The notes under the pieces: model-generated
The model's database searches: none
Seen by the model: only the letters and a program-made list of their open reading frames with translations
What the model was told of the DNA's origin: nothing
In this document: in pieces, positions 2,669 to 11,575 of the stretch
Layout of the letters: each line of letters starts with the position of its first letter
Numbering within the stretch: position 1 is the first letter of the stretch
Made by a program: the position numbers and the translations under genes
Origin: an uncultured Methanosarcinales archaeon
GTDB lineage: Archaea; Nanobdellota; Nanobdellia; Woesearchaeales; DSVV01
Assembly (NCBI GenBank): GCA_964593285.1
Contig: CAZQHZ010000002.1
Coordinates: 16,858-68,638 of the forward strand
DNA length: 51,781 bases
Reading direction: 5' to 3'

Positions 2669-4996
2669 TTAATTATTTTTTTTAATAATTCTATAATTAT
2701 TTTTAATGTCTTTTATGCTATATCCTTTTTGTTCTATTTTTTCTCGTAATTTGTCTGATAATTCCCAGTTTTTTTCATTTCTTGCAATTAACCTTTCTTC
2801 TGCTAAATCTATTATTTCTTTTGGTATTTGTTCTTCTTTATAATCAAGGATTCCTAAAATTGTATCTAACTTATTTAATTCGTCTTTAATTTTATTTGCA
2901 TTTTCTTTTGAAATTCGATTTTCATCAATTAATTTATTTATTTTTTTTATAAATTCAAACAATGATGCTATTGCTTCTGGTGTGTTTAAATCATCATCCA
3001 TTGCTTTGATGAAATGTTCATTTAATTCATTTATTAAAATGTCAATTCCTTTATTATTATTTTTATTATTATTTTCAATATCATTTAGTCTTAAGATAAA
3101 TTCATTTAATCTATTAATTGTGTTTTCTGCAGCGTTTAAACTTTTGATTGTTAAATTTAATTGTTGTCTGTAATGAGTTGAGATTAATAAATATCTTATT
3201 GCTTTTTCACTAAAACCTTTTTTTAATAAATCTCTGATTGTATAAAAATTACCAAGGCTTTTAGACATTTTTTTACCATCAACTATTAAATGATTACAAT
3301 GTATCCAGTAATTTACAAAGGTTTTTTTAGTTAGTGCTTCAGATTGTGCAACTTCATTTTGGTGATGTGGGAATACTAAGTCAATTCCTCCTGTGTGAAT
3401 GTCAATACATTCTCCTAGATATTTCATAGACATTGTAGAGCATTCTAAATGCCATCCTGGCCTGCCCTTTCCAATTTCAGTTTCCCAAAATACATCTTTG
3501 TCTTCTTCTTTTTTATAGGCTTTCCATAATACAAAATCTGATGCATTTTCTTTTTCATAATTATCATGGCAAATTCTTGCACCTTTTTTTAAATTATTTA
3601 AGTTAATATTTGCCATTTCACCATATTTTTTGAATTTAGAAATATCAAAATAAATGCTACCATCTTCACTTTTATAAGCATAACCTTTATCTAAAAGTTT
3701 TTTTACAAATTCTACCATTTCATTAATTGTATCTGTTGCTTTTGGAATAAATTCTGGTTTTAAAATATTTAAGGATTTAAAATCTTTAAAAAATTCATTT
3801 GTATAAAAGTTTGTAAATTCTGTTAGTGTTTTATTTTCATTTATTGAGCCTTTTATTGTTTTATCATCAACATCTGTTATATTCATTACATGTATTACTT
3901 CATATCCTTTAAATAAAAGATATCTTTTTAGTAAATCTGAAAAAATATAGCTTCTAAAGTTTCCAATGTGGGCATAATTATATACTGTTGGACCACATGT
4001 ATACATTTTAACTTTGTTTTTTTCTAATGTTATAAATTCTTGTTTTTTTCTAGTTAAAGTATTAAATAGTTTAAAGCTCATTTTATCACCTTCTATTAAT
4101 TTGGTACTTAAATATTTTTCTGCTCTATCTGGAAATATTATTACTATGTTTAATTCTTTATCTTTACATCCTTTATTAAATTCTTTTGCTTTTTTTAATG
4201 CGCCAAAAAGCGCGGCACCTGAGCTCATTCCAACAAATATTCCCTCAATTTTCATTATTTGTCGTGCATAATTGTATGCATCTTCATCAATTACTGTAAT
4301 TTTTTCATCATATAAATTTTCATCATAAATTCCAGGGACAATTGCTTCATTCATATTTTTTAGACCTTGTATTTTATGACCAATTGTTGGCTCAACTGCA
4401 ATTGTTTTTATTTTTTTATTGTATTCTTTTAATTTTTTAGAGCATCCAATAATTGTTCCAGAAGTTCCAAGTGCACATATAAACATGTCAATGTTTGGTA
4501 AGTCTTTTATTATTTCATTTGCTGTTGTTTTATAATGTGCTAGGTAGTTATTTTTATTATTGAATTGATCTGGCATGAAATATTTTTCTGGATGTTTTTT
4601 AACTAAGTATTTACATAATTTAATAGCACCATCTGTTCCTTCATCTTTTGGGGAAAGAATTATTTTTGCACCTAAAGCTTCTAATACTTTTCGTCTTTCA
4701 ATACTTACAGCTTCACTCATTACAATTTCAACATTATATCCTAATACTGCGCCAACCATAGCAATACCAATTCCAGTATTTCCAGATGTTGGTTCAATTA
4801 TCGTTTTGTCTTTTGTTAATTTTTTTTCATTTATTGCATTATTTATCATTTCAAGTGCAATTCTATCTTTTATGCTCCCACCAGGATTTAGTCCTTCTAA
4901 TTTTGCATAAATATTGACATTTTTGTATGGATTTATTTTGTTTAATTTTATTAAAGGAGTATTTCCAATCATTTCAATTATATTATTATATATCAT
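2669..4996 (-). CDS. cysK-cysS: Fusion ORF: cysteine synthase (CysK/CysM family, PLP-dependent) plus cysteinyl-tRNA synthetase
   Basis: Residues 1-304 carry GNTPL, SIKDR (PLP Lys), TSGNTG, GTSGT and YLST. Residues 305-775 begin MSFKLFNTLTRKKQEF and carry HIGN (the HIGH motif) and KMSKS. Confidence 0.85.
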   Translation of the reverse strand: MIYNNIIEMIGNTPLIKLNKINPYKNVNIYAKLEGLNPGGSIKDRIALEMINNAINEKKLTKDKTIIEPTSGNTGIGIAMVGAVLGYNVEIVMSEAVSIERRKVLEALGAKIILSPKDEGTDGAIKLCKYLVKKHPEKYFMPDQFNNKNNYLAHYKTTANEIIKDLPNIDMFICALGTSGTIIGCSKKLKEYNKKIKTIAVEPTIGHKIQGLKNMNEAIVPGIYDENLYDEKITVIDEDAYNYARQIMKIEGIFVGMSSGAALFGALKKAKEFNKGCKDKELNIVIIFPDRAEKYLSTKLIEGDKMSFKLFNTLTRKKQEFITLEKNKVKMYTCGPTVYNYAHIGNFRSYIFSDLLKRYLLFKGYEVIHVMNITDVDDKTIKGSINENKTLTEFTNFYTNEFFKDFKSLNILKPEFIPKATDTINEMVEFVKKLLDKGYAYKSEDGSIYFDISKFKKYGEMANINLNNLKKGARICHDNYEKENASDFVLWKAYKKEEDKDVFWETEIGKGRPGWHLECSTMSMKYLGECIDIHTGGIDLVFPHHQNEVAQSEALTKKTFVNYWIHCNHLIVDGKKMSKSLGNFYTIRDLLKKGFSEKAIRYLLISTHYRQQLNLTIKSLNAAENTINRLNEFILRLNDIENNNKNNNKGIDILINELNEHFIKAMDDDLNTPEAIASLFEFIKKINKLIDENRISKENANKIKDELNKLDTILGILDYKEEQIPKEIIDLAEERLIARNEKNWELSDKLREKIEQKGYSIKDIKNNYRIIKKNN

Positions 4997-5552
4997 TTTT
5001 TATTTCCTCTATAATTTTTGTAAATTAATTTTATATTAAAAATTTAAAGTAATTTTATAACAATAAATATTTAAAACAGTTATTTAATTTAAAGAAAATA
5101 GTAGCAACAATAATCAATTATACTTTTTGTTTGTACATCTTTAGTTATCATTTTTTTAAGTATTGTAAACTTATTTTTAAATTTTTAGGAATAATATTAA
5201 TTTAAATATTATAATTTGATATAAATAAATATATAAATTATTTTGTGAAATTTTTATAAATTTTATAAATTTTGATGGTGTTATTTATAAAAAAATATAT
5301 TTATTGTATATTATTATATATTATTTATATATAAATATATTTATCATTGTAATATTTTAATTTTTATTTGATAGTGATATTTAAAATGAAGGTGTGCTAA
5401 AAAATATAAAATTTTTAATAATTTTTTATTTAAAAACACAACTTTTATAAATAAATCGATTTTCTTAAAAAAAATATCAATTATTTAAAGAAAAATTTGA
5501 AAAAAATTATTAAATTTGATTGATAAAAAACCAAGCCTGGAAAAGAGTTTTT

Positions 5553-5583
5553 CAGTACGAGGTTCTAATAAGAGCTCGTTCTG
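5553..5583 (+). promoter_or_regulatory. Hairpin in the putative leader of the ribosomal protein operon
   Basis: CAGUACGAG (5553-5561) pairs with CUCGUUCUG (5575-5583), giving 8 of 9 pairs with one U-U mismatch and a 13-nt loop. It sits in the only GC-containing island of a 630-bp AT-rich spacer, 44 nt upstream of the rpl3 ATG. Confidence 0.3.
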
Positions 5584-5626
5584 GATTATTTTTAAAAAAT
5601 GCTTTGTTTTAAATTAAAAGATAAAA

Positions 5627-11236: not shown

Positions 11237-11575
11237 TTGATTAAAAAAACAAAAAACATTGGGGTTTTAATAAATGCTCCAAAAGAAGAATGTGTTAAAG
11301 ATACCCATTGTCCATTTCATGGACAACAAAATGTTAGAGGTAGATGTTTTGTTGGAAAAGTAATTAAATCAAAAATTCCAAAATGTGTAACTGTTGAATG
11401 GACAGGACAAGCTTATGATAAAAAATATGAAAGATATTATAAAACTAGAACTAAAGTTAAAGCACACAACCCTGTTTGTATATCTGCAAAAGAAGGGGAT
11501 ATTGTAAAAATTATGGAAACTAGAAAAATTAGCAAAACTAAGTGTTTTGTTGTTATTGAAAAATTAGGTGTATAA
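11237..11575 (+). CDS. rps17: 30S ribosomal protein S17 (uS17)
   Basis: The sequence contains CPFHGQQNVRGRCFVGKVIKSKIPKCVTVEW. The start is TTG, 6 nt after AGGTGA. Confidence 0.92.
   Translation: MIKKTKNIGVLINAPKEECVKDTHCPFHGQQNVRGRCFVGKVIKSKIPKCVTVEWTGQAYDKKYERYYKTRTKVKAHNPVCISAKEGDIVKIMETRKISKTKCFVVIEKLGV

Follow-up and report, generated by a model that had tools for sequence, protein, structure and literature searches.

The DNA stretch analysed here, called the window throughout, comprises 51,781 nucleotides of contig CAZQHZ010000002.1 (assembly GCA_964593285.1) from an uncultured archaeon. On its minus strand, positions 2669..4996 contain a single open reading frame (ORF) of 775 amino acids, started by an ATG and closed by a TAA stop codon (2669-2671). 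The ORF encodes two enzymes: a complete CysM-like, pyridoxal phosphate (PLP)-dependent cysteine synthase (residues 1-300) and a complete class I cysteinyl-tRNA synthetase (CysRS, residues 306-775), joined without an extra linker. A preliminary description of the window had already read the ORF as a complete PLP enzyme followed by a complete CysRS, and the ORF listing, Pfam and NCBIfam all bear this out. Each of the motifs it named (SIKDR, TSGNTG, GTSGT and YLST in the first half, HIGN and KMSKS in the second) is present, and by alignment, the catalytic residues of both halves are all kept.

Two complete enzymes in one open reading frame

The N-terminal domain (4097..4996) matches the Pfam family PALP (residues 9-289, 3.1e-66) and exceeds the cutoff of the NCBIfam cysKM subfamily model TIGR01136 (354.5 bits against 344.15), aligning over residues 7-300 with positions 2-298 of the 299 in the model. 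The cutoffs of the CysM equivalog TIGR01138 (312.9 bits against 394.2) and of the CysK equivalog TIGR01139 (317.7 bits against 350.95) are not reached. Matches in the Protein Data Bank (PDB) are cysteine synthases, with scores of up to 242 bits. Residues 170-273 align without gaps solely to CysM-type chains (Mycobacterium tuberculosis 3dwg/3dki, Escherichia coli 2bhs and Salmonella 2jc3), whereas CysK-type chains require a seven-residue insertion or gap. Because of this short loop, which follows the EP(T) strand, the domain is, judged by its sequence, CysM-like rather than CysK-like, and the CysK part of the preliminary description is better called CysM-like.

The PLP-binding lysine is Lys43 (window 4868-4870), located in the motif GGSIKDR. 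It is followed by TSGNTG at residues 70-75, GTSGT at residues 177-181 and YLST at residues 295-298. In alignments of 24 and 120 fusions, Lys43, S71GNTG75, Gln144, G177T-GT181 and Ser258, the serine expected to contact the pyridine nitrogen, are invariant. The equally invariant Lys213, in GLKNM, occupies the place that Arg210 has in E. coli and Arg220 in M. tuberculosis, a mapping made by alignment coordinates only. These arginines, here replaced by a lysine, are presumably the residues that bind the anionic substrate.

The CysRS half begins MSFKLFNTLTRKKQEF at Met306. Its catalytic (Rossmann) domain, residues 306-625 (3122..4081), matches the Pfam family tRNA-synt_1e (residues 323-624, 3e-115). 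The anticodon-binding region, residues 626-775 (2672..3121), is present as well and consists of DALR_2 (residues 661-717, 3.4e-17) and a C-terminal domain, the whole C-terminal region being modelled by AlphaFold as a helical bundle with a terminal beta-hairpin (pLDDT ~90). Residues 308-771 cover positions 1-464 of the 466 in the cysS model TIGR00435 and score 508.2 bits, far above the cutoff of 340. The cutoff of TIGR03447, the model of the mycothiol cysteine ligase MshC, is not reached (248.8 bits against 485.1). In the PDB, this half matches 8qhp with 381 bits and E. coli 1li5 with 358 bits.

The signature motifs of the synthetase are HIGN (residues 343-346, window 3959-3970), a variant of HIGH that occurs in many bona fide CysRS, and KMSKS (residues 576-580, window 3257-3271). 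Zinc, whose site in CysRS selects cysteine, is predicted to be bound by Cys334, Cys519, His544 and Glu548. From their motif context (YTCGPT, WHLEC and FPHHQNE), these presumably correspond to E. coli Cys28, Cys209, His234 and Glu238. A motif census found the four ligands, HIGN or HVGN, KMSKS and the methionine at the junction in 18 of 18 archaeal fusions. Both domains are folded confidently by AlphaFold, with a mean pLDDT of 88.8.

The whole fusion was used as a query against 5.8 billion proteins, and the best 120 matches were listed. All 120 are full-length proteins of ~760-800 amino acids that contain PF00291 and PF01406, with PF09190 in nearly all of them. Among these matches are one JGI protein with 84% identity and 16 others with 57-67% identity, whose metagenome-assembled genomes carry the names Nanoarchaeota, Nanobdellota or Woesearchaeota. 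Bacterial proteins of the same architecture, with 45-50% identity, account for about 100 more. At least 18 archaeal (DPANN) orthologues, 57-84% identical to the window protein, are fused likewise. More than 120 clusters at 90% identity have the fusion architecture, and they are annotated merely as 'cysteine--tRNA ligase'; at 50% identity, the full-length fusions fall into only about five clusters, of which one is archaeal, one is bacterial and large, and the other three are smaller and more degenerate. Annotation is, thus, incomplete, with hundreds of 'cysteine--tRNA ligase' entries hiding a second enzyme.

Genome contigs, scanned with patterns from the whole protein that proved too query-specific, yielded one fused locus (L014), one unfused locus (L015) and otherwise unrelated stand-alone genes, which served as the background for gene adjacency. 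Metagenome contigs were scanned with the archaeal alignment, its patterns being generic CysRS motifs; the matches listed included no fusions but two of the bacterial type (L099 and L119), and L105 proved to be an unrelated arrangement. No paper describing a CysK/CysM-CysRS fusion was found in full-text literature searches. The view that the architecture had not been described, therefore, stands as far as these searches go, but with more than 120 clusters it is not rare in the databases. The fusion is a real, conserved domain architecture of two well-known enzymes, apparently undescribed.

The junction and the unfused gene pairs

Read on the coding strand, the junction is gaa ggt gat aaa ATG agc (window 4093..4076). 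Residues 301-305 (I-E-G-D-K, 4082..4096, minus strand) correspond to the natural C-terminal tail of CysM plus one lysine codon (AAA, 4082-4084), and the next codon is the ATG of Met306 (4079..4081). A Shine-Dalgarno (SD)-like AGGTGAT (4085..4091) lies within the coding sequence and ends 3 nt, the AAA codon, before this ATG. The TGA and the adjacent TAA were correctly recognized in the preliminary description as stop codons one frame off: the +2 frame reads agg TGA TAA, and the ATG itself is overlapped by a TGA of the +1 frame. Eight archaeal orthologues have, at the DNA level, an uninterrupted reading frame, and no relative within the fused clade restores a stop.

The PLP half alone, used as a query, retrieved stand-alone cysteine synthases of ~297 amino acids with 60-65% identity from Woesearchaeota, Nanoarchaeota and bacteria of the candidate phyla radiation (CPR). 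This search listed no fused proteins, although these are 61-88% identical to the query; its ranking is, hence, unusable for closeness, and identities and trees were used instead. In four of the five archaeal loci with a stand-alone cysM that were examined, cysS lies directly downstream. The pairing is absent from the fifth, L011, and from L175, a CPR locus. This adjacency is specific, as cysM was found upstream in none of ~140 other stand-alone cysS loci with upstream flanks among the matches listed.

The distance between the two genes varies among the four pairs. It is 56 nt in L013, 3 nt in L174 (...GAG GTA TAG AAT ATG), 1 nt in L009 (...GGA GAT GAG TAG A ATG) and 0 nt in L015 (...TTT GGT GAT TAG ATG), and in both L174 and L015, cysS is in the same frame as cysM. 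In the unfused pairs, the SD of cysS is located within the last codons of cysM, and Met1 of all four unfused CysRS aligns with Met306 of the window protein, which marks the latter as the ancestral cysS start and a candidate internal initiation site. The cysS product of L013 is 53% identical to the CysRS half of the window and, by distance, the nearest to the fused archaeal CysRS halves.

Compared with GGT GAT TAG ATG in L015, the window has GGT GAT AAA ATG, which is essentially a lysine codon in place of the stop. Likewise, the fused L014 has GAG GTA GAT AAA ATG where the unfused L174 has GAG GTA TAG AAT ATG. Judged from these alignments, the fused linker is the natural CysM tail, one additional codon and the natural N-terminus of CysRS. 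We infer that, in the archaeal lineage, a translationally coupled cysM-cysS pair was fused when the stop of cysM mutated to a sense codon. The preliminary description had proposed a 1-nt change in the last codons of cysK as one way of fusing two coupled genes; a real fusion of adjacent, coupled genes that kept the SD and the ATG agrees with that proposal, but the change of frame it implied is unneeded. Since the pairs in L015 and L174 are already in one frame, a stop-to-sense substitution is enough without any frameshift. A spaced pair, an abutting in-frame pair and the fused gene are all available in public data, which would make this a clean natural example of operon neighbours becoming one protein.

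Several features of the unfused loci and their products deserve separate mention. The cysM stop codon is TAG in three of the four pairs (L009:5895-5901, L015:3898-3903 and L174:4892-4900), a codon not expected to dominate in AT-rich genomes. With cysS in the same frame in L015 and L174, occasional read-through of the TAG would already give the fusion protein. A short ThiI/QueC-like PP-loop protein, of a tRNA thiolation family, is encoded directly upstream of the L013 pair (L013:897-1526), and such a protein is encoded four genes upstream in L009 (592-1200) and L010 (454-1062), which may point to a small neighbourhood of genes for sulfur and tRNA. In P0275 (433 aa) and P0321 (469 aa), both close relatives of the CysM half, the fusion partner is a ParB-like nuclease domain (PF02195), another unusual one for this cysteine synthase subfamily.

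The strength of SD sequences was scored as the duplex energy between the 15 nt upstream of a start and the anti-SD at the 16S 3' end, GAUCACCUCCU. The SD of Met306 reaches -10.3 kcal/mol and ranks first among the 17 in-frame ATGs; among all codon positions of the gene, it belongs to the top 0.3%. Compared with the 41 ATG gene starts of the window, it would be third, behind two of -10.7 kcal/mol each, with a background frequency of 0.17%. The ATG of the fusion gene itself (4994-4996) is preceded by a weaker SD-like AGAGGA (5005..5010, minus strand; -5.8 kcal/mol). By motif count, three of the window's 226 internal in-frame ATGs, including that of the junction, are preceded by an SD. AGGTG or GGTGA is found before 8 of 56 naive ORF starts, for example at 11237, 11578, 14105, 15705, 26697 and 30130. 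The AGGTGA sequence, said in the preliminary description to be used across the window, does precede several genes, but these are a minority.

A strong junction motif (GGTGA, GGAGGA or GAGGT) is kept in six of the eight archaeal fusion genes for which DNA is available, while the residues encoded under it differ (EGD, LED, EED, KED or EVD). The motifs use G-ending codons, which are a minority in those genes, and synonymous resampling gives P values of 0.05-0.16 per gene. In the subclade of the window, the strength of the SD and its conservation favour continued selection for initiation at Met306. Because of this strength and the conservation of both SD and methionine, internal initiation yielding a free CysRS (~55 kDa) beside the ~89 kDa fusion is plausible. 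It would be an example of how an internal ribosome-binding site can survive gene fusion. Two points speak against it: the synonymous-site tests are individually weak, in lineages that are not independent, and the deeper-branching archaeal fusions L008 and L001 have kept the methionine but lost the SD. Due to this loss, internal initiation is not universal and could be a decaying relic.

A considerable probability, if short of an even one, is given to the alternative that only the full-length protein is made, the SD-like motif and Met306 being either leftovers or a translational pause that helps the CysM domain to fold first, so that no free CysRS is formed. L008 and L001 fit this alternative, as do the bacterial fusions, nearly all of which lack the junction methionine. 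Moreover, codons for Glu, Gly and Asp are purine-rich and readily mimic an SD, and the resampling P values are modest. On the contrary, the SD at the junction is the strongest in the gene, exceeding that of the gene's own start, and its sequence has turned over among GGTGA, GGAGGA and GAGGT with complementarity kept across ~35% protein divergence. The invariance of Met306 in the 18 archaeal fusions also argues for initiation at this codon.

Archaeal and bacterial fusions

The bacterial CysM-CysRS-like fusions (Desulfofervidaceae, Thermodesulfobacteriota, Syntrophales and others; P0019-P0121, P0156 and P0160; for example, L004:10001-12334) share the domain order, the linker length and an intact PLP domain with the archaeal ones. 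They differ in their CysRS-like half. A canonical KMSKS is present in none of 102 proteins (KMSRS in 23, otherwise unrecognisable), the fourth residue of HIGH varies, and 43 of the 102 lack Glu548. The junction methionine is found in 1 of 102, compared with 18 of 18 in archaea. Two deep bacterial clusters (P0156 and P0160) have lost the zinc cysteines, too. By these sequence features, the bacterial fusions are probably paralogues with altered function, whose CysRS-like half looks like a pseudo-synthetase or a neofunctionalised domain derived from CysRS; these look-alikes are probably not functional synthetases. A different arrangement is seen in P0126 (858 aa), a single ORF in which a complete CysRS of the 'DHIPVHH' subtype comes after a truncated, divergent CysRS-like N-terminal segment, as if CysRS had been duplicated in tandem.

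The CysM half of the window is 61-88% identical to archaeal fusions and 52-56% to bacterial ones; for the CysRS core, the corresponding values are 65-87% and 45-52%. Neighbour-joining trees of either half unite the archaeal fusions in one clade. For the CysM half, the bacterial fusions form a clade of their own in 100 of 100 bootstraps, and archaeal and bacterial fusions are grouped together in 1 of 100. In the CysRS tree, the archaeal fused CysRS is placed among stand-alone enzymes with 50-54% identity to it, and of the named stand-alone cysS loci, those of Woesearchaeota are the nearest. Only the unrooted splits of the CysRS tree were taken as informative, because midpoint rooting placed the long-branched bacterial fusions at the base.

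These results suggest that the archaeal and bacterial fusions are separate events, both starting from a recurrent cysM-cysS pair. The confidence in this is lowered by the trees being distance (neighbour-joining) trees only, by the bootstrap support of 61% that the CysM half gives to the clade of archaeal fusions and by the fast evolution of the bacterial CysRS-like half. An unlikely alternative is a single fusion event followed by horizontal transfer between Thermodesulfobacteriota-type bacteria and DPANN archaea, in which case the archaeal gene would not be a local product of stop loss. It would account for the same domain order and nearly the same linker length in both groups, for the bacterial fusions being the next-best full-length matches (45-50% identity) and for the halves of L015 being intermediate between the archaeal and bacterial groups; the fast-evolving bacterial half could, furthermore, mislead distance trees. 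It is at odds with the bootstrap counts given above, and the archaeal CysM (60-65% against 52-56%) and the archaeal CysRS (50-54% against 45-52% in the catalytic core) are both closer to stand-alone DPANN genes than to the bacterial fusions. Unfused in-frame pairs exist in archaea, and the junction methionine and SD are kept only there, which also argues for separate events.

Four separate runs, from metagenomes of microbial mats and a hypersaline lake, yielded Logan contigs of the stretch, with depths of 13.5x (2020 microbial mat), 31x (2024 mat) and ~2x each (hypersaline lake and another mat). Over positions 3800-4400 or the junction, these contigs show neither a substitution nor an indel, which confirms the frame. 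A search for RNA runs gave none. The second explanation offered in the preliminary description, a single-base assembly or sequencing error that removed the cysM stop in an organism really having two genes, could appeal to the operon-like junction with stops in both other frames and to error-prone AT-rich homopolymer runs, but it has virtually no probability left and is ruled out, because the four independent assemblies are identical and at least 18 archaeal orthologues are fused, those with 84%, ~66% and ~58% identity (JGI, ENA, NCBI and Logan) having the same linker length.

Proposed function and known systems

With high probability, ORF 2669..4996 is a genuine bifunctional gene for a cysteine synthase and a CysRS, which would have originated by stop loss in a coupled cysM-cysS pair and for which a coupled function is proposed. 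The N-terminal domain would make cysteine from an activated serine (O-acetylserine, OAS, or O-phosphoserine, OPS) and sulfide or thiosulfate in a sulfide-rich habitat, and the C-terminal domain would charge tRNA-Cys with this cysteine. The fusion would, hence, tie the final step of cysteine synthesis to the one with which cysteine enters translation, enforcing 1:1 co-expression and proximity. As CysM/CysK enzymes are homodimers, the PLP domain would dimerise the CysRS and pair two synthetase units. Local hand-over of a scarce, reactive amino acid may be favoured, and initiation at Met306 may, in addition, supply free CysRS. The link suggested in the preliminary description, to a PLP-dependent persulfide synthase activity of CysRS, is speculative. 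Channelling of cysteine from synthesis to tRNA charging is conceivable on this basis, the structure model being neither for nor against it.

Two results limit the proposed coupling. In the AlphaFold model, the pTM is 0.62 and the linker has a pLDDT of ~70, so that the model does not define the relative orientation of the domains and lends no support to a fixed inter-domain geometry, an interface or a tunnel. Furthermore, no cysE or ser genes were found within the 51.8-kb window.

It is improbable that the PLP domain is not mainly biosynthetic and instead degrades or transforms cysteine (as a desulfhydrase, in lanthionine or persulfide formation, or in sulfide detoxification) or senses cysteine and sulfide and so modulates the CysRS rather than feeding it. 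The joint best PDB sequence matches of this half are 5xem, a Fusobacterium cysteine-synthase homologue producing H2S, and 2egu, a cysteine synthase of Geobacillus. The unreached cysK and cysM equivalog cutoffs and the missing cysE point in the same direction, and the loss of KMSKS in the CysRS-like half of the bacterial fusions suggests non-canonical roles there. DPANN genomes are usually without amino-acid biosynthesis (PMC11606122), and the fusion is, unexpectedly, found in archaea thought to lack almost all of it. Against a non-biosynthetic role stand the invariance of all beta-replacement residues and the TIGR01136 score above its cutoff. Stand-alone orthologues with 60-65% identity, annotated as cysteine synthase B, are widespread in DPANN archaea and CPR bacteria. 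Finally, the conserved pairing with a fully canonical CysRS would most simply mean product-substrate coupling.

The proposed coupling can be extended to a broader scheme, which is possible but doubtful. The fusion would then be a protein-only counterpart of tRNA-dependent cysteine synthesis, a dimeric CysM-CysRS that, in these minimal archaea of sulfidic habitats, passes cysteine straight to the active site of the synthetase and keeps the free pool minimal, with the ratio of fused to free CysRS tuned by internal initiation. The bacterial fusions without a canonical KMSKS would be derived forms, in which the CysRS-like half serves as a cysteine-binding regulatory or otherwise non-canonical module.

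The host, one of the DPANN archaea and with a tiny genome, comes from samples of sulfidic microbial mats and hypersaline sites, and the G+C content of the window is ~24%. The fusion gene is divergent from, and upstream of, an archaeal L3/L4 ribosomal protein operon; GatE and GyrB are also encoded in the window. A very AT-rich intergenic region of 630 bp (4997-5626) separates the gene from the L3 operon. Rfam gave nothing at the gathering threshold in this region or near the fusion gene, and no tRNA-Cys was found within the 51.8-kb window. Converging on the 3' end of the fusion gene, a plus-strand ORF of 75 amino acids (2406-2633) is extremely lysine-rich, its C-terminal half being nearly all K, A, V and P. 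Pfam gave no match for it, and its product could be a small protein that binds nucleic acids. The plus-strand ORF at 6-845 has a weak match to the SLT lytic-transglycosylase domain (3.3e-05); in an archaeon this is a surprise, and an attack on bacterial or host cell walls could be its purpose.

Each half of the fusion has well-known stand-alone counterparts. The CysM enzymes of E. coli (2bhs/2v03), Salmonella (2jc3) and M. tuberculosis (3dwg/3dki) are the same fold-type II PLP enzyme, with the catalytic lysine, the Asn loop, the Gly-rich phosphate loop and the serine. The window domain differs from them by its attachment to a CysRS, by a score below the cysM equivalog cutoff and by the lysine instead of arginine at the anion-binding position. 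The canonical class I CysRS (E. coli 1li5/1u0b and the archaeal 8qhp) share with the second half the full-length TIGR00435 match, the HIGH-type and KMSKS motifs, the four zinc ligands and the DALR domain. Bacterial CysRS is monomeric; the fusion, on the contrary, bears a 305-aa N-terminal enzyme domain, through which it is likely dimerised.

The closest relatives in organization are the unfused cysM-cysS pairs of Woesearchaeota and other DPANN archaea (L009, L013, L015 and L174). Gene order and cysS start are the same, and the SD lies in the final codons of cysM, but a TAG or TAA stop still separates their two proteins. The fusion resembles this operon in covalent form. To our knowledge, covalent fusions of an amino-acid biosynthetic enzyme with its cognate aminoacyl-tRNA synthetase are rare. 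Another one was encountered in P0218 (711 aa), in which an N-terminal serine acetyltransferase, recognized by eye from its CysE-like hexapeptide repeats, precedes a canonical CysRS with HIGH and KMSKS. A genetic link between cysteine biosynthesis and cysS is also given by the gltX-cysE-cysS operon of Bacillus subtilis. In both cases, the partner is a serine acetyltransferase, the enzyme of the first step, and not the sulfhydrylase of the last step.

In most organisms, cysteine synthesis and tRNA charging are separate steps (PMC5424206). The SepRS-SepCysS(-SepCysE) system of methanogens, described in the same source, also physically couples cysteine formation to Cys-tRNA-Cys, and its likeness to the fusion is a functional analogy only. 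The two have no homology. In the methanogen pathway, cysteine is made on the tRNA from O-phosphoseryl-tRNA by a fold-type I PLP enzyme (PMC5424206), whereas the fusion would make free cysteine first and then activate it with a normal CysRS.

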